A stretch of DNA of 44,045 nucleotides from positions 1 to 44,045 of the forward strand of contig JBFHCO010000001.1 of assembly GCA_041585205.1 (NCBI GenBank), given 5' to 3'. The position numbers and the translations under genes were made by a program. Within the stretch, counting starts at the first letter, position 1; every line of letters begins with the position of its first letter. Shown here piece after piece: positions 1,183 to 13,105 of this stretch. A model generated the notes under the pieces. It worked only from the letters and a program-made list of their open reading frames with translations. It did no database searches and had not been told where the DNA came from. This DNA is from Candidatus Omnitrophota bacterium. GTDB taxonomy: Bacteria; Omnitrophota; Omnitrophia; Omnitrophales; Aquincolibacteriaceae.

Positions 1183-4100
1183 TTACGCCGCTCTCTCCAC
1201 CGCCAGCTGAGCAGCCTGGGTATCAAGGAGAGAATTGACATAACGGAGCATGAAGGAAATGGATTCTGCAATAGCTTCCGGGAACGGAAGCTGACTGTCT
1301 GTACGGGTTTTGCTTTTAAAGGCATCGACTGTGACCAGGAGTTTTAAGGCATTCACTTGATCGGCAAAGCGTATGCCGGGGATACGGCCAAAGGAACGGG
1401 CGACCCCTTCCCGGAGCATGACGCCATATTCTTTCATTTGGGTGTCGCTTTGGAATTCAAAAGGCGAACCGATTTCAGCGACAATCAAAGGCGTTTTCCC
1501 CATGCCGTTTCGAACGAGGCGCCTTTCTTCGATGGGTTTATTGACATCATTCCAGCCGGAATCAAGCAGCATGGGATTTTCCCTTAAGAATTGAGTCGGC
1601 TCATAATCGGATTGATTTCTCCCCAAAAAGAAGGCCAAGGCCGCGCGGTCGAAGTTTCGGGAGAGGAATTCCCCCGCCGCTTGACGGGCCTCGGTTTGGC
1701 CGGCATCGGGGAGAAGGATTTCAGGGATTAAAAGTGTTCTGATTTCAGGGATGGTGCCCGGGAATAAGGGCACTCCGTGCTTTTCTATATGGGCCTCATT
1801 TAAGGCCTTCCAGTTCCCCAGAAGGGCGCTCACCCCTTGGATATCGATGCCGGTGGTGTCGATAGTCGTAACGGTCGGCTCGGCCACGAAGAAATCAACG
1901 AGTCGTGGCGCGACCGTCGCGCGAACTTTATCCAGCATCACAAACCCGCGCGTACCCATGGCAAGCATTTGTGCAAGTTGAGGTGAAAACAATTTCGCTA
2001 AAATGGAGTTGATAGTCGTCTCCTCTTCCAAAGCTTGATTGACGCGTACGGTTTGTCCCTGCAGATAGTCTTCAACTCTTCGCAATTCGGAGCGCGCCTG
2101 ATCGCCGAGCCTGCGATTCAAAGCTTCCGGACTCTCGCGCAATGAGGCGCTGATCATGCTCTCACGCGTTTCTCCCGATAAGCTGACCAAAGGAGTTCTG
2201 AGCATCGCATCCATTGCACCCGGCCGCATTTCAGAACGCTTCGTTTGACCTGTTTCCGTATCCACTTCGGCACGGTCAGGTGATTCTGTTGCGGTATCGC
2301 GCATTTCCCCCGGATCCCCCGGCGCTGTTTCCCTCGTAAACTGCCGTTCTGTGATCGGACCCATCGCGGGCCGATTACTTCTCTCAACAAGCTGTCTGAC
2401 CGCTTCTTTCGATGCCTCCCCCCGTCTTGACTGAACGATTTGAAGCCCCTCGTCGTCATCGTAAACAAACTCGATATCCCGCATGTCCATGTAATACTTT
2501 TCGATTTTTATGGCGTTTTCAATCAAGCTGTAAAATTCGATCAAATCATCAAAAGCCCATTCGCTTTGCCCCTGGCGCACCTTGACCTCGATTTCCCCCG
2601 TTTCTTTGTCGTAAATGATACGATCTGTGTCAGCGATACCGCTCACCACATCTTCACCGGGCGTGCGCGCGATATTAATAATAATCCTATTCTGATTAAG
2701 CGTATTGGGATCATTGGTCATCACGACTCCGCTTTTCTTTGATTTGATCATTTTCTGAACCACCACGGCATGATTTAATTGCTTCAAATTCAGACCATTA
2801 TTCAGACGGTACCAGATGGAATTCGGGTGATACAAAGCGGCAAAATTCAGAATAATCGCTTGCATTAAATTGCCGGATGGCACATCCGGGGTCGTAAGAT
2901 TCGCGCCGGCAAAGGGTTTGTCTGAATCCTCATCCACGGCGGAGGAGCGGACGATCACGCGTTCCGCTCCCAACTTCTCAAATTCGTCTTGAACTCCATT
3001 TTCAATCTGCGGCGGGATTTCCGTATCTAATATATCCGCGCGAATGGATTCCAGGATTCCGGCTATTTCCTTTTCAAGGGCCGGTGTTAACCGCCTGCCC
3101 GCTTCGTTGAATTTTCTTTGAATCTCATCCATGCGCCGGTCAATGGCATCTCTTAAAGCAGGGTCTAAAAGCTCTTGAAAAACATTGGTTGTCACAATGA
3201 ACCCTTGGGGAACGGGCAATCCTAAAGCGGACATCACGGCTAAATTGGCCCCTTTTCCTCCCATGGTTTGGACCAAAGCAGCCATATCAACGGCTTCCGA
3301 ATCCAGGCCTGTTTCATCCAATCGGACAAAATCGCGATCACTCAAATCGACACCGGCGGCCCGTGACGCCTGCTGCCGGACATTCCAAGCGGATTCCGCC
3401 TGCGCCTCGCGCTTCATCCAAACTTCAAGCGTTGCGTCATCAATTTGACCCGAGGGGCCTTCCGTGCCCTCCGGCTGAATGGGAAGAGCGCCTTCAGGAC
3501 CTTCCTCACCGTGAATAATCAAGCGCCCCGTTGCGCCGTCAACGGTAACTTGAGCCCCTTCCGCTAATTCGATGTCGGTCGTTTGAACCTGATAAGTTTC
3601 AACCCCGTCAACTACTTGTCGCGAACCATCAACCGCCTGGAGGCTTCTTAGATGCAATTTACCTTTCAGCCAAAAGACGTCACGCAAAATGATATGCGGA
3701 ATGCCGGCACCCCGTGCCGTCAACGCGGCATGACTTTGTTCAGCGCCTTGGGTCGTCACCATACCGATTTCCATGCCGAAAATCGGATTATCATCCGGAG
3801 TCGTGTAGGGAGCCAAATAGATATCACCGTCTTTCAAATTCTGCTTGTTATAGACAAGGCGGCCCGTTTTAACACCCGGGCTTGAAGCTAATCCCTTAAA
3901 AATTGCCTGCTCTTTCGGTAAAACACGTTCGACATCCGTTTGATTCAATACCGCTTGGGCCATACGCTGTTTGCCGGCAATTTGCACCGCATTGGCGGTG
4001 ACCGGAAAAGAACTGCCTAAACGTTCCATCACATTTTTAAGTTTAATATCTGATATCTCGAAAGCACCGGGCCTTCTTACCGTTTGTTCTGTTTGCGCAT

Positions 4101-7100
4101 ATATGATTTGACCGGAAGCAATGTCTCGAAGGACATGAACCGAAATCGTTTCACCGTTTTTATCTTTCACCAATGCGCGTTGATAAAATGCGGCGCCCAC
4201 CGTGCTGACCGTTTCAAAATTCAGAATGGATTGGATGGCATTAAGATAGGCGGCTGATTCAATTCCGTTTTTCAGCTCCTCCGAATCGCCCGGAAGATTC
4301 CGCAAACTGTTTACCATGGATAAAGCGGGATTATAATTTTCATTCTTTTCAAGAGTTCCCTTCCCGTCTTTCATGACAATGCGTATTTGTCCCCGTAAGA
4401 GCGCATTCTGGATGGCGTCATTGACGTAACGATCTATTTCTCTTTGGCCCAGCTTGCTTCCCGCAGGGATCGGATCCAGTCCCAAATCCGAAAGCATTTC
4501 GGAGACGGCCGAAGGCAGTTCACCTCGCACAAGCGCTTCGCGCTGCGCTTTGTAACTTTTAAGAGCTGATTCTGACATACGGTCGATGTTACGGCGCAGC
4601 GCCTGCAATTCATGCGACCTTAAATTCCCCAGTTTCCCGGGTCCGCTTTTCAATTCGTTATACCATATGTGCGCCCACCAGGGGACATAGCCGCCATCCT
4701 GCTCTAATGCCGCAATATAATCATCGCCGAAATTTGTGTTATCGTCCGAATTGGCAATGGCGTAATCTATATCCTTGGCCGTGAAAACTACCCACATCAT
4801 ATCTTGCAGCAATTCTGCAATGTAATTGGCCCGGTTATATCCGGGGCGAAGCGTTCCCGCATCCTTATTGAAATTGGCCCGCAAGGTTTGTTGAATTTTT
4901 GTACTGCTGGTTTCAACGGCAAAGCCCATTTGTTCAAAAGCTTTTTGAATCAGGTTGAAGCGCAATTCGTTCACATCCGTATAATTCAAATAAATCGCTC
5001 CGCCTTCATCCAAGGGCCGATCGTCAATATGAACGGTTGCGGAATGCCCCCCTAAACTTAAATCACCGATGACGTAGCCTTCATCATTGACAAAAAAGGT
5101 GTATTTCGCGTGTCCTTTTAAAACGGATTTGGGCACGCGTCTAAAAGTTGACGCTATTAAATTGGCGGCCGGATGATCCGTAATGGCCATGGTTCCATCC
5201 AGATCAATGATTTCAACGACACCCTTGCCTTCCTCGGCATCGCCGACATCCATGATAAGATCCGCGATTTGGGGAGCCTTAACGATGCCCAGCTGCGCCT
5301 TGATGCTGCTGACTTCGAATTTTTCTATCGATTTGTGTACCGCATCCAATGCTTTTTGATGAACCAGGTTAATGAAGCCATTCAAGGTCCCCATGCGGTA
5401 AATCCTTCCGATTGATTTTACTTCTTGAAGTATCGGCCTGACCAATTTCATTTCCCTGCTATAGGCCTCCATGTTAACTGCCATATCGGCAAAGCGACGC
5501 GTTTCGCGGGCGTCGCTGATGAATCGCTCGAAAGCGGATCCGTCATCATATTCGGGTGTGTACGTCAGCTCGGAGACAATGGATTGGTAACGAGCGACCA
5601 TACTGTCAATTAAATCCATAATGGCTTCCAACTCGGCCGATCTGTTAGGATGAGCCGGCAGCGAGCCGAGCCGCATTAAGATCCGATTATTGATCTCAAC
5701 CAGCTCGAAAAATTGGTTTACTTTTACTTTGATCTGACCTTTAACGCCGGGATCAGCATTTGTCTTGGGCATGCCATAAATCAACATCGTCTTGAATTCC
5801 GGATTCACTGACGTGATTTGAATATTTTCCGGCAAAAAGGATTCTAAAGCGCCGGCGGCATGCTCTGTCACACGCAGGCCCAGCTGAGAGATATCCGTTT
5901 CGCTCTCATGAACGGAAGGATCCGCTAAACTCATATTCGTCAAGTTCTGATCCGATAGATAAATGAAACGTACAGCGCTCAAGGAGTTAAAGGGACGGAT
6001 GGCGCTTTGGTATTCTGATTCTCCCAAAATGGTCCGTGCGCGTCTTAGATTTTTGATCAGATTCAAAGCAGCTTCTTTCGATACAAAAAGCGAATCCTGA
6101 AATCCGTTTAGCGGCCAATCGCGGAAATTGGAAGGTAGAAGCGATTCAAGTTCCGCCACGGTTTCTTCTCCGAGTTGATCCACGAGTCCTTCACGGGCTT
6201 TCCCGTTCGGGCCGATGCGCTGCCGGATTTGCAGCATTAAATCACTGGCAGCATCCTGCTTGAGCCCCATCAGTTGCGCCATGCGGGCCGGCGGTAAGCT
6301 CACAGCGCCCTCATCATCGTCCGCTTCCTCAAGCGGGATAGAAGGCAAATCTTCGCTTCGAGGGGAGCCGATCACGAATCCAAGATCCGGGTCGAATTCT
6401 ACGTCTCCATCTTGCTGCGATCTGATCTCCGACCGCGCGGTTCGGCGGGTTGAAATCTCTTTGGCCGTATCGGCAACCTCTTCCGGCTTCGCGGGATAAG
6501 TTTGCGGTCTTACGGTTGTCGGTAATGGCGCCTCTTTTTCGAGAGCTTGGCTGATTTCGCGCAACTCCTCATCGGTCATCACGCCTTCTTGCACACGCCG
6601 GGATTGAGACAATATGAGTTGAAGCTTCTGAACATCCTGGATTATTTCCGTCATCACCTCACGGATGTAATTGCCGTCCGGATCGGCGGGGGCGAATCGT
6701 CTGGCAGGATTCCGTTTGCCGTTTATTGCGAATTGTTCGATTTCAGTTTCTATATCGATGATTTTTTGAGACAAAGCCCTCACGGAAGACTCGAGCGCGG
6801 GCGGCAATTCGTCCAGCCCCATTTCACGCTGCATGCTTTCCGCCATGCGGGTGGCATTCACGGCATAAGCCTGATGCGCAAGCAAATCCATGCGGCTACC
6901 CTCGTCGCGTTTTCTTAAACCCGTGAGGAATTGATCGAGCGGAAAAACTTCATTGGGCATCCGCTTATGCTGATAATAGTGAAATTTCTGAACATCCCCC
7001 TTTTCATCAAGGAGGATGCTGCCGTCCGGAGCTTTGCGGTCGACGGATACGAATTCAAAGTCATCGGCGGCAATCGACATGTGCTGGCCGTTCGGCCTGA

Positions 7101-10100
7101 ACCGCTGTAACAGCAAGTGATGTGACGGTTTGATCATTCTGCCGGGAATATTCGGATCCGGCTCGGCCCGGTGGTACAATAATTCTTTCAGCATTCCCAT
7201 CATGGCGGTCAAATCCAAAATGCCCCACAGATTATGCGGACTGAGGGATCCCGCCCGCAACTGCTCGAGCAATTTCAGAAGCTGATTGCGGTCCGGAATA
7301 TGACGGCGTGATACGATCGCACTATTGATTTGCCTGATGGTTTCTCCGACATCGGATGAGATTTCCTGATCCGCATCATGATCGATGGAGCCGAGCCGTT
7401 GCGTATTTAAATCGAAAACAAAATTCTCCGCCTTGCGGTCCTGGACGTTAATTCCGACTGCGTTTGCGTCATGTACGAATTGAAGCGCCTGCGATACCGC
7501 ACTGAATGTTGAATTCCAATCAAGCTTGCCTTCGTCATGGAGGCGGCTTAAATCCTCTCCTTCCAATCCTTCAAAAAGCATCGCCGGTCTCGACATTTGC
7601 CGGCCGTCTTCCAAGGTGTAGTTGATGACAGTTAAGCCGATTGGTCTTTGGACGGGAAATGAACGGTCGGCCTGACCGGTTACGCTTTGAAGAATCCGTT
7701 CGGACACCTGATAGCGCATCAAGCTTTGTTCCATTGCCTCAATTTGTGAACTGGCTCCCAATAAAGGTACCGGACGTGCCTGTCCGTCACGCACGATGCG
7801 GTCTTCGGTGCGCGCAATTCTTAAGAATCGGTTTGTACCGCGCTGTCTGTAAACATCCGCATAACCGCCGCTAGTGACGTATTCCAATTCCACCGGAGTC
7901 GGTTGGCCGGGATAAGTCACGGCTATGATTAAGTCATCGATTAAACGTGAATTGTCCTTGGGATGCGGCCTGAAACCCGCATAATTAACCTGAGATGTAA
8001 CGGTCGCCTGACCTGACGCGATTTGAAATTGCCCGTCTTGCACCCCGAATTGAACCGGTGTCAAATCCAGCACATTGCTGGCATCATCCTCCGTGACAGG
8101 AAGTGCAATCGATTCATCCGCATCGACCCGAAGCTCAGAGCGCGTCAATGCGCTGCCCAATACAAATCCCTGATCCTCCTGAATTTCCTGCGCCTCGGTG
8201 AACTCAGCGGTGTCTTGCCTCTTTATATCCGAGCGGGCTGCGGACTGAGATATTGCGCTTTCGATTTGAGAACGGGTCTCGGCACGAGTTTGAGGTTGAG
8301 TCGCCAACGGGCCCGTGGTCACGCGGATGTCACCGATATCAACGGTTCGGACAGGTAATGCTCTCACATCCTGTTCGGGAGATTGCGTCTGAACGGCTTG
8401 ATAGGCTGCTGACAAACCCGCGACAGCGGTACCGGCATCCACACCCGCACGCTGAAGACCTGTGACAAGCGTCTGCGCGGCCGTGTCGACTCCGGGACGT
8501 GCAAGTTCGGCGCCAAATTGGCGCTCCAGCTGCGCGGCTTGCCGCTCGGTTTGAACCATCCGCTCCGCCGTGCGTATCATTTCAGGCGTCACAATCGCGG
8601 GCCTTGCTGCCGGTACAAGCTCCGCGGCCCGTCCGAGAACGGGAGCAAACCCTTCACGCGGAGGAATGATCGTGGCAAGGTCAGCAATAGCCCGTGTCTC
8701 GGCGCGCGATATGCCCGTCCGTATCGTTTGCAGGAATGTATTTGATTGGGGCGCTCCGGGATTAAGTACAACAACACCTGTCGTTTCAACCGCAGCCGGG
8801 CTCACGGCACCGGCCTGATCGATCAAGACAGAGACGTTCTCGGCGGTCAATGCTTTCCGCTCCGTTAAAAATTGAAGTCCTTCCGTAAAGGCATTAAGCT
8901 GAACCTGAAAATGATTCCATAAGTCGGAGAGAGTTTTTTCCCGGAAGGCGTCCAATTCCTCCCGGATAATGGACAGGATGTCCTCCCTTGAAGCAGAGGC
9001 TGGACCTTCCCCGCCGAAGCGGTCGCGATAAACCTTAAAAAGCAAATCTATGTACTGCGTGTACTCTTTGGCTTCCGCGATGCGGCCTTCCTCATTCAGC
9101 TTACGTATGACATTGTCGCGCCACAGCTTCAACGCCTTGCGGAAGTCAGGCTGATTGAGCTCCGCCACCAGCTTGGCCGTCGAATGCTTTGCGAAGGCGT
9201 CATAAAAACTCACATCCAAATCACGCTTGTAGGAAAGCCGGCCGTGCATGAGCTCCGGATAAAACTCATGACCTGCAAGTGAACCGATATTAGGCATGAT
9301 GACAAGATACGATACGCCTTCCGCATCGAGATTTTTTTCGAACCCTTGCGTATGAAAACCACCCGCGACCACAATGGCCGCTTTGGCTTTTTGCTGTTTG
9401 AGTGTCTCCATTAAATTCCGCTTGAAGGCTTCGTCGCGTTCAAGTGCCAAGCGGTAAAATTCCAGGGCGGATTGAAGGTGAGCCCGGGAATCTTTTAACA
9501 GATCCAAGAAGCCGTCCGGATCGTCCCGGAATTCATCAAGCTGCGCCCGCGTCACTTCCAAATTAGCCAAGTCCCCCAAAAGTCTGAGCCGTCTGTAGCG
9601 TTCGATCAACTCACGCTCTTCGGGCTTTTGCACCAGATCATTTTCGATATCCCGGAAAAGGGCTTCCAATTCGTCAAAGAGCTTGGTGCCTTTAATGCTG
9701 GCCAGTGTCTCGCTATGGCCGATCAGCCGCATCATGGCCGGCGTGAGGCGGGGCTTCAGTCCCATTTTGCGCCCGATTTCCAGCATGTATTTCAGGAACT
9801 GGCCCGGCTCCATGCCCCCGGTCACATAGGTTTGATAATTCCGGTGAAACTGCATTTCGTCTTTGATGTTCATTTTTTTCAAAAAGCGGGACTTGAATGT
9901 GGCGGCCATCTCGCGCACCTGCCCGTCCACATTCTCCTGCTGCTCGGCGGCGGATTTTTCGAATTCAAAGGAATCGTAAAGTCTGCTCAGTTGCGGGTAT
10001 TGTTTGATTTTTTCCGAGGCGCCCTCGAGGTCTCCCAGGTATTTGAGAAGCTGTAAAAGGTAAGCGTTTTCGGCCTCGAACGCTTCACGGTGGGCGTGAA

Positions 10101-10719
10101 ATTCTTTGAGTTCTTTTGAAAAGAACTTCTCGCGGCGCTTGTCCAAATCTTTTCTGAGTTCCCCGAGAGCCTGATGAACCGCTTCCTTGTCGCCGTAGGC
10201 GCGTAGATAGGCGTAGTAATTGCGTTCGTACAAATCCCAATCTTCAATTCCGTAATAGCGGCCCTCCTTTTCACTGAAAATCGCGGCCGAACCCGCGCCC
10301 GTGATCTCACCTTTTTCAAGATAGTCCTTGAAGACTTTGGATTTCACCAGCTCATCCGGAAAAGACCGGAACAGTGTTAAGTCCAGCTTCCCGGCGGCGC
10401 CTTCCAAAGCCACCAAATCAATTCCGTAATGGGTCTGCAAATATTGAATGAGCTTTTGAATGTTATGCTGGGCATCCAGCACGGCATGGGCGTTTTGAAT
10501 GAGGATCACGAAGGGGCTGCCGTTACCGTTTTGTGAAGCGACCTGAATGGATGCGAATTCGGTCGGAATTTGCACGCCGTCTGGAAACGGCACCGCGATG
10601 CCGGCTTTCGTGGACAAAGGCACCGCCGCGGGCGGCTGCGCCCATGTCGCGTTGGTTGCGGAAAATATCAAAATTGTAAGCCAGGCCAAGATTCTGAGTT
10701 TTCTGAGTGAATGAATCAT
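1183..10719 (-). CDS. Giant (3,178 aa) exported multidomain protein: TraB/TIKI-like N-module, kinase-like domain, phosphohistidine swivel plus ATP-grasp (PPDK_N-type) dikinase module, shared C-terminal tail
   Basis: Uninterrupted 3,178-codon frame with ATG at 10717-10719 and TAA at 1183-1185. The N-terminus MIHSLRKLRILAWLTILIFSATNATWA/Q is a typical Sec signal peptide (basic n-region, hydrophobic core, A-x-A-like site). The start overlaps the stop of the upstream HTH gene (ATGA). Confidence 0.9.
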   Translation of the reverse strand: MIHSLRKLRILAWLTILIFSATNATWAQPPAAVPLSTKAGIAVPFPDGVQIPTEFASIQVASQNGNGSPFVILIQNAHAVLDAQHNIQKLIQYLQTHYGIDLVALEGAAGKLDLTLFRSFPDELVKSKVFKDYLEKGEITGAGSAAIFSEKEGRYYGIEDWDLYERNYYAYLRAYGDKEAVHQALGELRKDLDKRREKFFSKELKEFHAHREAFEAENAYLLQLLKYLGDLEGASEKIKQYPQLSRLYDSFEFEKSAAEQQENVDGQVREMAATFKSRFLKKMNIKDEMQFHRNYQTYVTGGMEPGQFLKYMLEIGRKMGLKPRLTPAMMRLIGHSETLASIKGTKLFDELEALFRDIENDLVQKPEERELIERYRRLRLLGDLANLEVTRAQLDEFRDDPDGFLDLLKDSRAHLQSALEFYRLALERDEAFKRNLMETLKQQKAKAAIVVAGGFHTQGFEKNLDAEGVSYLVIMPNIGSLAGHEFYPELMHGRLSYKRDLDVSFYDAFAKHSTAKLVAELNQPDFRKALKLWRDNVIRKLNEEGRIAEAKEYTQYIDLLFKVYRDRFGGEGPASASREDILSIIREELDAFREKTLSDLWNHFQVQLNAFTEGLQFLTERKALTAENVSVLIDQAGAVSPAAVETTGVVVLNPGAPQSNTFLQTIRTGISRAETRAIADLATIIPPREGFAPVLGRAAELVPAARPAIVTPEMIRTAERMVQTERQAAQLERQFGAELARPGVDTAAQTLVTGLQRAGVDAGTAVAGLSAAYQAVQTQSPEQDVRALPVRTVDIGDIRVTTGPLATQPQTRAETRSQIESAISQSAARSDIKRQDTAEFTEAQEIQEDQGFVLGSALTRSELRVDADESIALPVTEDDASNVLDLTPVQFGVQDGQFQIASGQATVTSQVNYAGFRPHPKDNSRLIDDLIIAVTYPGQPTPVELEYVTSGGYADVYRQRGTNRFLRIARTEDRIVRDGQARPVPLLGASSQIEAMEQSLMRYQVSERILQSVTGQADRSFPVQRPIGLTVINYTLEDGRQMSRPAMLFEGLEGEDLSRLHDEGKLDWNSTFSAVSQALQFVHDANAVGINVQDRKAENFVFDLNTQRLGSIDHDADQEISSDVGETIRQINSAIVSRRHIPDRNQLLKLLEQLRAGSLSPHNLWGILDLTAMMGMLKELLYHRAEPDPNIPGRMIKPSHHLLLQRFRPNGQHMSIAADDFEFVSVDRKAPDGSILLDEKGDVQKFHYYQHKRMPNEVFPLDQFLTGLRKRDEGSRMDLLAHQAYAVNATRMAESMQREMGLDELPPALESSVRALSQKIIDIETEIEQFAINGKRNPARRFAPADPDGNYIREVMTEIIQDVQKLQLILSQSRRVQEGVMTDEELREISQALEKEAPLPTTVRPQTYPAKPEEVADTAKEISTRRTARSEIRSQQDGDVEFDPDLGFVIGSPRSEDLPSIPLEEADDDEGAVSLPPARMAQLMGLKQDAASDLMLQIRQRIGPNGKAREGLVDQLGEETVAELESLLPSNFRDWPLNGFQDSLFVSKEAALNLIKNLRRARTILGESEYQSAIRPFNSLSAVRFIYLSDQNLTNMSLADPSVHESETDISQLGLRVTEHAAGALESFLPENIQITSVNPEFKTMLIYGMPKTNADPGVKGQIKVKVNQFFELVEINNRILMRLGSLPAHPNRSAELEAIMDLIDSMVARYQSIVSELTYTPEYDDGSAFERFISDARETRRFADMAVNMEAYSREMKLVRPILQEVKSIGRIYRMGTLNGFINLVHQKALDAVHKSIEKFEVSSIKAQLGIVKAPQIADLIMDVGDAEEGKGVVEIIDLDGTMAITDHPAANLIASTFRRVPKSVLKGHAKYTFFVNDEGYVIGDLSLGGHSATVHIDDRPLDEGGAIYLNYTDVNELRFNLIQKAFEQMGFAVETSSTKIQQTLRANFNKDAGTLRPGYNRANYIAELLQDMMWVVFTAKDIDYAIANSDDNTNFGDDYIAALEQDGGYVPWWAHIWYNELKSGPGKLGNLRSHELQALRRNIDRMSESALKSYKAQREALVRGELPSAVSEMLSDLGLDPIPAGSKLGQREIDRYVNDAIQNALLRGQIRIVMKDGKGTLEKNENYNPALSMVNSLRNLPGDSEELKNGIESAAYLNAIQSILNFETVSTVGAAFYQRALVKDKNGETISVHVLRDIASGQIIYAQTEQTVRRPGAFEISDIKLKNVMERLGSSFPVTANAVQIAGKQRMAQAVLNQTDVERVLPKEQAIFKGLASSPGVKTGRLVYNKQNLKDGDIYLAPYTTPDDNPIFGMEIGMVTTQGAEQSHAALTARGAGIPHIILRDVFWLKGKLHLRSLQAVDGSRQVVDGVETYQVQTTDIELAEGAQVTVDGATGRLIIHGEEGPEGALPIQPEGTEGPSGQIDDATLEVWMKREAQAESAWNVRQQASRAAGVDLSDRDFVRLDETGLDSEAVDMAALVQTMGGKGANLAVMSALGLPVPQGFIVTTNVFQELLDPALRDAIDRRMDEIQRKFNEAGRRLTPALEKEIAGILESIRADILDTEIPPQIENGVQDEFEKLGAERVIVRSSAVDEDSDKPFAGANLTTPDVPSGNLMQAIILNFAALYHPNSIWYRLNNGLNLKQLNHAVVVQKMIKSKKSGVVMTNDPNTLNQNRIIINIARTPGEDVVSGIADTDRIIYDKETGEIEVKVRQGQSEWAFDDLIEFYSLIENAIKIEKYYMDMRDIEFVYDDDEGLQIVQSRRGEASKEAVRQLVERSNRPAMGPITERQFTRETAPGDPGEMRDTATESPDRAEVDTETGQTKRSEMRPGAMDAMLRTPLVSLSGETRESMISASLRESPEALNRRLGDQARSELRRVEDYLQGQTVRVNQALEEETTINSILAKLFSPQLAQMLAMGTRGFVMLDKVRATVAPRLVDFFVAEPTVTTIDTTGIDIQGVSALLGNWKALNEAHIEKHGVPLFPGTIPEIRTLLIPEILLPDAGQTEARQAAGEFLSRNFDRAALAFFLGRNQSDYEPTQFLRENPMLLDSGWNDVNKPIEERRLVRNGMGKTPLIVAEIGSPFEFQSDTQMKEYGVMLREGVARSFGRIPGIRFADQVNALKLLVTVDAFKSKTRTDSQLPFPEAIAESISFMLRYVNSLLDTQAAQLAVERAA
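2420..3342 (-). other. PPDK_N-type ATP-grasp nucleotide-binding domain
   Basis: LVQTMGGKGANLAVMSALGLPVPQGFIVT (GGKGANL at 3241-3261), VIVRSSAVDEDS..FAG, SGVVMTNDP, PGEDVVSG, IEFVYDDDEGLQIVQSRRG. These are hallmark motifs of the PEP synthase/PPDK N-terminal domain. Here it lies C-terminal to the swivel domain, which is a permuted order. Confidence 0.75.
3595..3897 (-). other. PEP-utilizing-enzyme mobile (phosphohistidine swivel) domain
   Basis: GLASSPGVKTGRLVY ... MVTTQGAEQSHAALTARGAGIPHII. The putative phospho-acceptor His codon is at 3730-3732. This matches the GGxxSHAAIxARExGIP signature of PPDK, PEP synthase and rifampicin phosphotransferase. Confidence 0.7.
7180..7917 (-). other. Protein-kinase-like domain
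   Basis: Gly-rich SGGYADVYR followed by FLRIAR. Catalytic-loop-like VQDRKAENFVF (DRKAEN at 7423-7440; compare HRDLKPEN). IDHD at 7375-7386 lies 19 residues after the putative catalytic Asp (compare the HRD-to-DFG spacing). Confidence 0.45.
9230..10560 (-). other. N-terminal module, copy 1 (TraB/GumN/TIKI/ChaN-superfamily-like putative metal-dependent hydrolase)
   Basis: Ordered motifs: FVILIQNAH (IQNAH at 10486-10500), LVALEGAAG, YYGIEDWDLY, ALERDEAF, VVAGGFH (GGFH at 9352-9363). The pattern of an N-terminal His, a mid Glu, ERD, then G-G/A-x-H matches my memory of the TraB/GumN/TIKI family. It is paralogous to the modules at 11359-12930 and 38690-40160. Confidence 0.5.
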
Positions 10720-11358: not shown

Positions 11359-12930
11359 TTACGTTGCAGATTCAAGATTTGCGGCTTCGGGGCTATCCCC
11401 CATATGAAGGCGTGTTGTGCGGAACCAGGTGCTGCCGTCGCCCCATTTCTCGCGTAAAACTTCGAAATAGGGGCTCGGTTCCTGTCTGATTTGAAATTTC
11501 GGAATGATGCTCAGGATGGATATTTTTTTTGCCTCAAATTGCTTGATCAGATCTTTGGCGTGAAAACCGCCGATCACGAGGGCATAGATTTTCTTCTTAT
11601 GCATGCGCATGAACAGAAGCGAATTTTCCACAATGGATTCTTCGCGCTGCCTGGCTAATTCATAGATTTGAACGGCGCTTTTCACATAGGCTTGAAGCTC
11701 CTGAAATGATTCCTTATCGTCAAGCAAAGCGCGTAAATCTTCCCGCTTCCAGACCGGCTCGAAATTATTAAATTCGGCTTCATCCCTGGGTTCCCAGCGG
11801 ATATCAAATAATTTTCTGACCAAATGCGCATAGTCCGACAGATTGGCGACAATTTTTGCATCATGATCCGGCAGCTCCTGATCCCTGATGGTTTTATAGA
11901 GTTTCTCGGCCTCTGCGTACGTCGCCTCCAAATCCGTCCCGATCAAGCTCTGGATCACCAGCAAAGCCCGCTCAATTTCTGTCACGGAATATTTTCCGTA
12001 GGCATCCGGATTTTCATTTTTAAGCCGCATCAGCGTTTCCAGAACCGCGGCCTCCCCTTCCGTTCCGGGGATCATGCGCGCCGCGTGCAAGGGGTAGAGA
12101 TCTTCCTCTGACAGCGTACGCGTGAGCACGCGCAGCAATTCCTTCTTTTCCAATTCCAGCTTACTCTGATCCAACGCCTTATTTTTGGCCTGTATCTCAT
12201 TCCACGCTTCCATATGCAGCGTTTGTTCCGCCGCGATACCAAGCGCTTCGGCGCGGCGCGTGAGCTCATCAAGATATTTGAACAACACAGAAACATTTTG
12301 ATCTGCCTGCCGACGCAGTTCGGAAAGCGCTTCCAGGGCCGGCGGGTAAAACCGAGTTCGAAGTTCGGACAGATTTTTTTCAAGCGTCTCAAGCGTGGCC
12401 AGCGCGGTTTTTTGGTTTCCGTAAAAATCGAGATAGGCCTGCATGTTTTGACTGTAAAGGACGGGATCTTCGACGCCCCACAATTTCAGATCCTGATCCT
12501 CGAGCGTCAGATCCAAAAACTCCTCAGCTGATAATTTGCCTTGCTTCAAGTAGCGCAGCGCCACGGTTTGCAAATGACGGGGGTCCACACCATTCCGCAT
12601 ATAGGACAGGTCGATATTGCCGGATCCGCCCTCCGCCATGACATACTCCAATTGATAATATTGGACGAGGTAGCGGAGGATTTCGATCATGCTTAGCTGG
12701 GCTTCGTAGCGCGCATGCGCGTCTTGAATGATCACGAGCACGGGCGCCTCAGAATCCCCTGATTCAACCGTGCGCTCCGTGATGGCCAAATGGGAAGGAA
12801 TGGTGACGGGAATGGGGTCCGGATCGGCTGCCGCAGAGCCTATCATGATCTGCGCCATGAAGCCCGCGGCAATCGGGAGCAAAAGCGTTCGAAACAGCCT
12901 GCATTTATTATGAGATGTCCGGTCCGCCAT
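11359..12930 (-). CDS. Exported stand-alone copy of the TraB/TIKI-like N-module (523 aa from the ATG)
   Basis: ATG at 12928-12930 with AAGGTG 7 nt upstream (the track uses a TTG one codon earlier). Signal peptide ...LLLPIAAGFMAQIMIGSAAA/D. Motifs VLVIIQDAH (12715-12729), VMAEGGSG, LWGVEDPVLY, ARQREES, LVIGGFH (11560-11571) are colinear with the N-termini of both giant ORFs. Confidence 0.85.
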   Translation of the reverse strand: MADRTSHNKCRLFRTLLLPIAAGFMAQIMIGSAAADPDPIPVTIPSHLAITERTVESGDSEAPVLVIIQDAHARYEAQLSMIEILRYLVQYYQLEYVMAEGGSGNIDLSYMRNGVDPRHLQTVALRYLKQGKLSAEEFLDLTLEDQDLKLWGVEDPVLYSQNMQAYLDFYGNQKTALATLETLEKNLSELRTRFYPPALEALSELRRQADQNVSVLFKYLDELTRRAEALGIAAEQTLHMEAWNEIQAKNKALDQSKLELEKKELLRVLTRTLSEEDLYPLHAARMIPGTEGEAAVLETLMRLKNENPDAYGKYSVTEIERALLVIQSLIGTDLEATYAEAEKLYKTIRDQELPDHDAKIVANLSDYAHLVRKLFDIRWEPRDEAEFNNFEPVWKREDLRALLDDKESFQELQAYVKSAVQIYELARQREESIVENSLLFMRMHKKKIYALVIGGFHAKDLIKQFEAKKISILSIIPKFQIRQEPSPYFEVLREKWGDGSTWFRTTRLHMGDSPEAANLESAT

Positions 12931-12955
12931 CAATAATCACCTTAAGCTAAATAAT

Positions 12956-12984: not shown

Positions 12985-13031
12985 TAATTAGACGAGCCGA
13001 TCAAGGAGGCTATTCGAATCAAAAAGAAACG

Positions 13032-13105
13032 CGCCCGGGACGGGACTTGAACCCGCAACACCCAGATCGACAATCTGGTACTCTAACCAATTGAGCTACC
13101 CGGGC
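13032..13105 (-). tRNA. tRNA-Asp (anticodon GTC), no encoded CCA
   Basis: The reverse complement folds as a cloverleaf. Acceptor stem GCCCGGG/CCCGGGC, D arm GCTC-AATTGGTTA-GAGT, anticodon arm CCAGA-TTGTCGA-TCTGG (GTC at positions 34-36). Variable loop GTGTT, T arm GCGGG-TTCAAGT-CCCGT, discriminator G. Confidence 0.9.

Follow-up and report, generated by a model that had tools for sequence, protein, structure and literature searches.

Phosphohistidine dikinases are known to act on a handful of acceptors, namely pyruvate, starch, rifamycins and prodigiosin precursors. In phosphoenolpyruvate (PEP) synthase and pyruvate phosphate dikinase (PPDK), an ATP-grasp domain is followed by a swivel domain that carries the catalytic histidine, and then by a TIM barrel. 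Rifampin phosphotransferase (Rph) is a three-domain dikinase that lacks the TIM barrel, and its domains run in the order ATP-grasp, rifampin-binding domain, swivel (PMC4844700). Glucan, water dikinase (GWD) is built from two copies of the carbohydrate-binding module (CBM) CBM45, a central domain that is all-helical in GWD1, a His domain and a C-terminal ATP-binding domain resembling that of Rph (PMC13553574). Here, we describe a dikinase cassette encoded in a 44,045-nucleotide stretch of a Candidatus Omnitrophota bacterium (positions 1 to 44,045 of contig JBFHCO010000001.1, assembly GCA_041585205.1; hereafter the window), within the gene of a 3178-residue modular protein (P0121), one of four large open reading frames (ORFs) on the minus strand of the window. 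The cassette consists of an upstream domain, called X, followed by a swivel and an ATP-grasp, and is probably an intact dikinase of an undescribed family that phosphorylates a macromolecular acceptor outside the producer's cytoplasm. The enzyme activity, the role of X as the acceptor site, the export of the protein and the nature of the acceptor are all things that we infer, from the comparisons set out below.

The protein also belongs to a second context. Long Omnitrophota proteins that join several enzymes behind a signal peptide have been described (10.64898/2026.06.07.730766), and the preprints by West-Roberts et al. 2023 and by Nielsen and Lui 2026 already discuss the puzzle of where such proteins are localised, with PPDK_N listed among the Pfam domains of giant proteins in a supplementary figure legend of one of these preprints. 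P0121 resembles the catalogued giants in its phylum and in joining numerous cytoplasmic-type enzyme domains to a signal peptide or transmembrane segments; the sizes differ, with proteins of at least 10,000 residues catalogued by Nielsen and Lui and of more than 30,000 residues discussed by West-Roberts et al., against 3178 here. P0121 is a small, experimentally tractable example of the Omnitrophota long proteins.

The dikinase domains and their order

The two dikinase domains are recognised by Pfam well within the thresholds of their families: PF00391 (PEP-utilizers) at residues 2296–2398 (nt 3526–3834; E 2.7e-9; 36.9 bits against a cut-off of 23.1) and PF01326 (PPDK_N) at residues 2484–2774 (nt 2398–3270; E 4.2e-52; 177.9 bits against a cut-off of 27). 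The original prediction, made by eye, had placed a swivel at 3595–3897 (residues 2275–2375) before an ATP-grasp at 2420–3342 (residues 2460–2767); both the domain calls and their order are borne out, and the coordinates agree with the Pfam matches. It had also named His2330 as the catalytic residue, and in a phmmer search of the Protein Data Bank (PDB) the QSH of His2330 indeed pairs with the catalytic TSH of the PEP synthase 8a8e, the two domains aligning in swapped order. This enzyme is the best sequence match to the ATP-grasp and swivel (E 5.6e-38, ~30–35% identity). The motifs of the ATP-grasp are all intact (GGKGANL, VRSSAVDED..FAG, VVQKM..SGVVMT, GEDVVSG and DIEF..IVQSR). The cassette hence shows the features by which the phosphohistidine dikinase superfamily is recognised, PF01326 with intact ATP/Mg-binding motifs and PF00391 with a catalytic His.

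Hidden Markov models (HMMs) built from 120 PEP synthases and run over the whole 3178-residue protein detected a single ATP-grasp (residues 2481–2720) and a single swivel (residues 2267–2404). The original prediction had raised one objection against itself, an additional ATP-grasp further upstream that would bring back the usual order; none was found by these models. The TIM barrel is missing, as had been suspected: PF02896 (PEP/pyruvate TIM barrel, PEP-utilizers_C) has no match in the protein at E <= 0.1.

The closest matches could be taken to place the cassette among the PEP synthase/PPDK-type enzymes or among antibiotic phosphotransferases of the rifamycin type. In sequence and in structure, its ATP-grasp and swivel come closest to PEP synthases and rifampin phosphotransferase, and the catalytic His and nucleotide-binding motifs are those of PEP synthase and PPDK. 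An AlphaFold2 model of residues 1600–2795, computed with the family alignment, reached a pLDDT of 70, and a Foldseek search with this whole module ranked first the ATP-binding domain of rifampin phosphotransferase 5hv3 (E 2.4e-17), followed by HpeI, PEP synthase and PPDK. The ATP-grasp was the sole part that aligned, with Rph and PEP synthase matches at E 1e-17 to 1e-14; among solved structures it comes closest to Listeria RPH-Lm (5hv1, 5hv3, 5fbs), a dikinase that is likewise built of three domains and has no TIM barrel. Yet this assignment is already contradicted by domain, score and fold tests, and we give it next to no credence. PF02896 is absent, and the domain order is opposite to the ATP-grasp, swivel, TIM barrel of PEP synthase and PPDK and a circular permutation of that of Rph. 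The NCBIfam models for PEP synthase, PPDK, rifampin phosphotransferase and PigC/RedH match these two domains only and score far under their cut-offs (100–168 against 456–883 for the PEP synthase/PPDK equivalogs; PEP_synth 163 against 740; RIF_Ptrans_rph 122 against 999). Finally, Foldseek does not match X to the rifampin-binding domain of Rph. Because the TIM barrel is lacking, pyruvate is not the acceptor, and because X is unlike the rifampin-binding domain, a rifamycin is not suggested either.

The order had been thought anomalous on the premise that the ATP-grasp comes first throughout the class, which fails for GWD, an enzyme named in the same prediction, whose His domain comes first (PMC13553574). 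The order of the cassette is a circular permutation relative to PEP synthase, PPDK and Rph, yet it is the established order of GWD, and it is therefore not unprecedented. Set against potato GWD1 (StGWD1) and phosphoglucan, water dikinase (PWD), with GWD taken from its published description, the cassette is alike in that its His domain follows the substrate-side part and precedes the ATP-binding domain, in having no TIM barrel, and in an Rph-like ATP-binding domain, seen for GWD in PMC13553574 and for the cassette in its top Foldseek match. It differs in that neither CBM45 nor CBM20 is present, in that X is mixed alpha/beta in the model whereas the GWD central domain is all-helical, and in being bacterial, signal-peptide-bearing and embedded in a 3178-residue modular protein.

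The X domain and its family

The original prediction had suggested that the region upstream of the two domains might bind the acceptor. Relatives of this region were collected with an exhaustive phmmer search of 1.84 billion representative proteins, using residues 1480–2262 as the query, which returned 47 distant relatives (E 1e-18 to 1e-3). Those with a name are proteins of Elusimicrobiota or Omnitrophota metagenome-assembled genomes, annotated as 'PEP/pyruvate-binding domain-containing' or 'phosphohistidine swiveling domain-containing'. The idea of an upstream acceptor-binding part is supported by a core, residues ~1824–2262, that is co-conserved directly before the swivel in every relative found. 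Across the family, X measures about 450–600 residues, and the linker between swivel and ATP-grasp varies from ~40 to ~500 residues. Mapping with local HMMs gave the order X core, swivel, ATP-grasp in every full-length relative; placing the swivel before the ATP-grasp is a fixed family trait and not a one-off rearrangement of the 3178-residue protein. One relative (P0244) carries two complete cassettes in tandem, and a second Omnitrophota giant (P0192) of the head family described below contains the same cassette (X-core HMM E 3.2e-44, against 7.5e-117 for the self-match of the window protein).

Two proteins (P0281 and P0286) were at first taken to have the Rph-like order, with the ATP-grasp in front. 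They were dropped as partial proteins that fill contigs of ~5 kb, and could be fragments of tandem-cassette proteins such as P0244. Word-indexed searches were less informative: the cassette alone retrieved canonical PEP synthases only and the upstream region alone nothing, and as both searches also missed the window's own protein, these are weak negatives. The word prefilter seems to miss modules within very long proteins. As a single-protein query, the cassette found no relative in GTDB genomes. No circularly permuted dikinase of this type, and no exported one, turned up in literature searches; the cassette family is undescribed to date, its domain order itself being already known from GWD.

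In a 32-sequence alignment (A1), overall identity is just 18–27%. The catalytic His is present in every relative that covers its column, with the flanking S-H pair nearly always kept, and the ATP-grasp motifs (GGKG, VRSSA..ED, FAG, QKM, SGV, GE..VSG, DIEF, QSR) are conserved across 31 relatives. Degraded catalytic residues in homologues, which would have spoken against the original prediction, were not seen. Motifs kept intact at so low an overall identity indicate purifying selection on the active sites and, on this comparison of sequences, argue for active enzymes. The same observation bears on the idea that the cassette is a catalytically dead relic, kept for purely structural purposes within a large scaffold protein. 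The long low-complexity linkers, the orphan modules and the merely distant relatives of the cassette are what such a relic might show, but the motifs for catalysis and for nucleotide binding are all intact, and all are conserved among those distant relatives, which makes a relic very unlikely.

Modelled alone (residues 1650–2265), X gave a more confident structure, with a pLDDT of 76.4 and a pTM of 0.73, laid out as a helical bundle, an alpha/beta subdomain, further helices and a second alpha/beta subdomain. Neither the PDB (5hv1 and 5fbs included) nor BFVD offered a Foldseek match to this model at E <= 1e-3. As modelled, X is neither a TIM barrel nor a rifampin-binding domain, nor all-helical like the central domain of GWD1. 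Because it invariably adjoins the swivel, X is the best candidate for the acceptor site and likely the acceptor-binding domain.

By analogy with PEP synthase, PPDK, Rph and GWD, a three-step swivel transfer of the usual kind appears to be the likeliest catalytic cycle. ATP would be bound by the ATP-grasp; His2330 of the mobile domain would then attack the beta-phosphate, with release of AMP and transfer of the gamma-phosphate to water or phosphate; the swivel would finally rotate towards the adjacent X, where an acceptor would be bound and receive the beta-phosphate. The dikinase machinery would gain a further class of substrates through a family of this kind, bacterial, conserved and equipped with a new putative acceptor domain.

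In nine of the 32 sequences of alignment A1, the ATP-grasp is followed directly by a C-terminal low-molecular-weight protein tyrosine phosphatase (LMW-PTP), whose closest solved relative by profile comparison is the arginine phosphatase YwlE; these fusions include P0248, P0249 and P0254 (L001 6173-11440). A fused phosphatase would have its counterpart in plants, where dikinase and glucan phosphatase work in a cycle, and together with the GWD-like domain order it raises the possibility of a bacterial GWD counterpart, in which X binds an alpha-glucan or another polysaccharide and sugar hydroxyls are phosphorylated. The head family and other Omnitrophota giants are, moreover, rich in enzymes of glycogen and starch, namely starch synthase, phosphorylase, debranching enzyme, amylase and phosphoglucomutase. 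Several features speak against this alternative. Neither CBM45, CBM20 nor any other carbohydrate-binding Pfam family was found in the 3178-residue protein or in 31 relatives, and the mixed alpha/beta model of X departs from the all-helical central domain of GWD1. The fused phosphatase is of the LMW-PTP type and closest to YwlE, whereas plant glucan phosphatases are dual-specificity phosphatases. We therefore hold a glucan-phosphorylating counterpart of GWD to be improbable, though by a wide measure less so than a dead relic.

Signal-like N-termini and the head family

The 3178-residue protein begins with MIHSLRKLRILAWLTILIFSATNATWA, followed by QPP. In this segment, a basic n-region is succeeded by a core of ~12 hydrophobic, uncharged residues that ends in a T-W-A site. 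These features bear out the signal-peptide-like N-terminus recognised earlier, and no other segment of the protein is hydrophobic. The basic residues in front of the core are R6, K7 and R9, and the next charge comes only at K38. Under the positive-inside rule, this arrangement predicts an N-in/C-out topology.

Signal-like N-termini were scored across proteins with a crude rule applied to the sequence, for which PEP synthases served as the control (12/119 positive). By this rule they occur in at least 15 of 39 representatives of the cassette family (~24 by eye). As they recur in stand-alone relatives, export looks like a family trait rather than an accident. On an Elusimicrobiota contig (L083 8001-21787), three tandem paralogues adjoin yajC-secD-secF. 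Frequent export signals and fused phosphatases are both unusual for phosphohistidine dikinases.

In P0121, the signal-like segment stands directly before a conserved N-terminal domain of ~600 residues, called the head. A search with the whole protein returned 119 relatives of 1761–5554 residues, which share with it residues ~10–650 only. The rule scores a signal-like N-terminus directly before the head in 97 of 112 head-family proteins. Downstream of the head, the cargo is highly varied and includes methyltransferases, kinases, ABC1, phosphotransferase system (PTS) enzyme I, HPr, glycogen enzymes and SecA-like domains. Of the named GTDB entries with a head, all except two come from Omnitrophota, with several paralogues to a genome, and the best identity to the window protein is 48%. 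The head itself has no Pfam match and no sequence match in the PDB, profile search included; its invariant motifs QDAH...EG...GGFH and WRD may resemble those of Tiki/TraB/ChaN-type 'GxxH' enzymes. Judged from these sequences, the head family is specific to Omnitrophota, and its members combine a signal peptide, a ~600-residue head and variable enzyme modules, of which the dikinase cassette is one. The family sharpens the puzzle of why Omnitrophota place ATP- and cofactor-dependent enzymes behind signal peptides.

A simple answer would be that the enzyme never leaves the cytoplasm: the N-terminal segment would be an uncleaved membrane anchor, or go unused, and ATP and substrates would be cytoplasmic. 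Most cargo of the head family, from methyltransferases and kinases to PTS enzyme I, HPr and glycogen enzymes, does consist of classical cytoplasmic enzymes that need cofactors. West-Roberts et al. describe some predicted localisations of giant-protein domains as seemingly very improbable, and Nielsen and Lui find an arrangement on the cytoplasmic face compatible with about half of the Omnitrophota long proteins. The predicted N-in/C-out topology nevertheless disfavours an anchor with a cytoplasmic enzyme, the short core ending in a T-W-A site is typical of a cleaved signal peptide, and there is no second membrane segment to return the chain to the inside. We consider a tethered cytoplasmic enzyme rather unlikely, at about one chance in several.

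Our preferred reading thus remains an exported dikinase. The export signals common in the family and the LMW-PTP fusions together point to a macromolecule, whether a glycan or the side chain of a protein, as the acceptor, which would lie beyond the cytoplasm of the producing cell. The most plausible ATP-containing site is another cell, into which the cassette would be delivered as an effector. Several points weigh against this interpretation. Neither the periplasm nor the extracellular space is expected to contain ATP, so that export and the need for ATP conflict unless another cell is reached; no secretion or injection apparatus was linked to the gene of the 3178-residue protein; X may instead be a regulatory or scaffold domain; and the gene neighbourhoods of three relatives gave no clue to function or substrate.

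Linker motifs, coordinates and neighbouring genes

The modules of the head-family proteins are separated by linkers in which a short motif recurs. The pentapeptide R-[SA]-E-[ILMVT]-R occurs in 482 copies in 120 head-family proteins, where shuffled sequences give an expectation of 6.8 (~70-fold over); 120 PEP synthases contain none, and 51 X-swivel-ATP-grasp relatives a single copy. It is self-contained, has a small residue at position -1, never falls within the head and shows a median spacing of 343 residues. The 3178-residue protein has six copies (Table 1), placed in low-complexity linkers that bracket folded modules, among them both sides of the cassette, one cargo module of this head-family protein. 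Elsewhere in the window, three copies lie in the 8957-residue ORF and one in a 1065-residue ORF. The motif may be a processing or a docking site. Literature searches found nothing on an RSExR motif in Omnitrophota proteins, and in keyword searches of the two preprints neither the head domain nor the RSE[LVM]R motif nor the X-swivel-ATP-grasp cassette was found mentioned.

A bolder version of the delivered-effector proposal can be built on these elements. Omnitrophota and Elusimicrobiota, two phyla in which some members are very small and depend on hosts, would export effector dikinases that use the ATP of a target cell and a new acceptor fold to phosphorylate a host or prey macromolecule, with the LMW phosphatase acting as eraser in some members and the Omnitrophota carriers being polyprotein-like and cut at RSE[LVM]R. 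Taken as a whole, this scheme is speculative and in our estimate doubtful. The head domain and the RSE[LVM]R motif provide handles on the question of processed polyprotein versus delivered effector.

A second repeated linker element, 'GFV[LI]GS', was noticed at residues ~848 and ~1445 (~nt 8160-8180 and 6370-6390, minus strand), 24 and 33 residues downstream of an RSExR-type motif in two linkers and followed by an acidic stretch.

Table 1. Features of the 3178-residue protein and of its surroundings in the window (aa, amino acids).
Feature	Position (nt)	Strand	Basis or remark
Gene of the 3178-aa modular protein (P0121) with dikinase cassette	1183..10719	minus	single uninterrupted ORF; head HMM E 2.5e-216
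Signal-peptide-like N-terminus, aa 1-27 (MIHSLRKLRILAWLTILIFSATNATWA)	10639..10719	minus	sequence read directly
Conserved N-terminal head, aa 38-643	8791..10608	minus	HMM E 2.5e-216; coverage map
R-[SA]-E-[ILMVT]-R copies	8692-8706, 8272-8286, 8128-8142, 6421-6435, 2224-2238, 2080-2094	minus	
RSEIR, aa 1429-1433, linker just upstream of cassette	6421..6435	minus	
X domain, aa 1650-2262 (conserved core ~1824-2262), putative acceptor-binding	3934..5772	minus	phmmer relatives, AlphaFold2 model
Phosphohistidine swivel, aa 2267-2404	3508..3921	minus	Pfam PF00391 and HMM from PEP synthases
Catalytic His2330 codon CAT, context QGAEQSHAAL	3730..3732	minus	aligned to PEP synthase catalytic His
Flexible swivel/ATP-grasp linker, aa 2405-2480	3280..3507	minus	low pLDDT in model
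ATP-grasp nucleotide-binding domain, aa 2481-2774 (PF01326)	2398..3279	minus	Pfam, HMM, Foldseek
RSEMR, aa 2828-2832, linker just downstream of cassette	2224..2238	minus	
RSELR, second downstream copy	2080-2094	minus	
C-terminal module, aa 2881-3178, orphan	1186..2079	minus	no Pfam match; no BLAST match among head-family members
524-aa head gene	11359-12933	minus	head HMM E 1.1e-56
tRNA-Asp (GTC)	13031-13105	minus	between 524-aa head gene and 8957-aa giant gene
8957-aa head gene	13390-40263	minus	head HMM E 7e-92

Another part of the 3178-residue protein, residues 880–1400 (6520-8082, minus strand), shows motifs that look by eye like those of a protein kinase, with VQDRKAENFVF resembling an HRDxKxxN catalytic loop and SIDHDAD following it. 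This region has no Pfam match and no sequence match in the PDB at E <= 1. If it is truly kinase-like, two different phosphotransfer modules would reside in one protein.

The head is also found in the adjoining genes. Three adjacent minus-strand genes, encoding proteins of 3178, 524 and 8957 residues, start with a signal-like segment and a head, and the 524-residue protein is essentially a stand-alone head. The 8957-residue neighbour further contains a TolC-like outer-membrane efflux (OEP) domain, a HEAT-repeat array (residues ~7840-8440) and ~15 hydrophobic segments that resemble transmembrane segments. It is unusual for an OEP domain to sit within a giant multi-pass protein, and this one might relate to the export of the neighbouring proteins.

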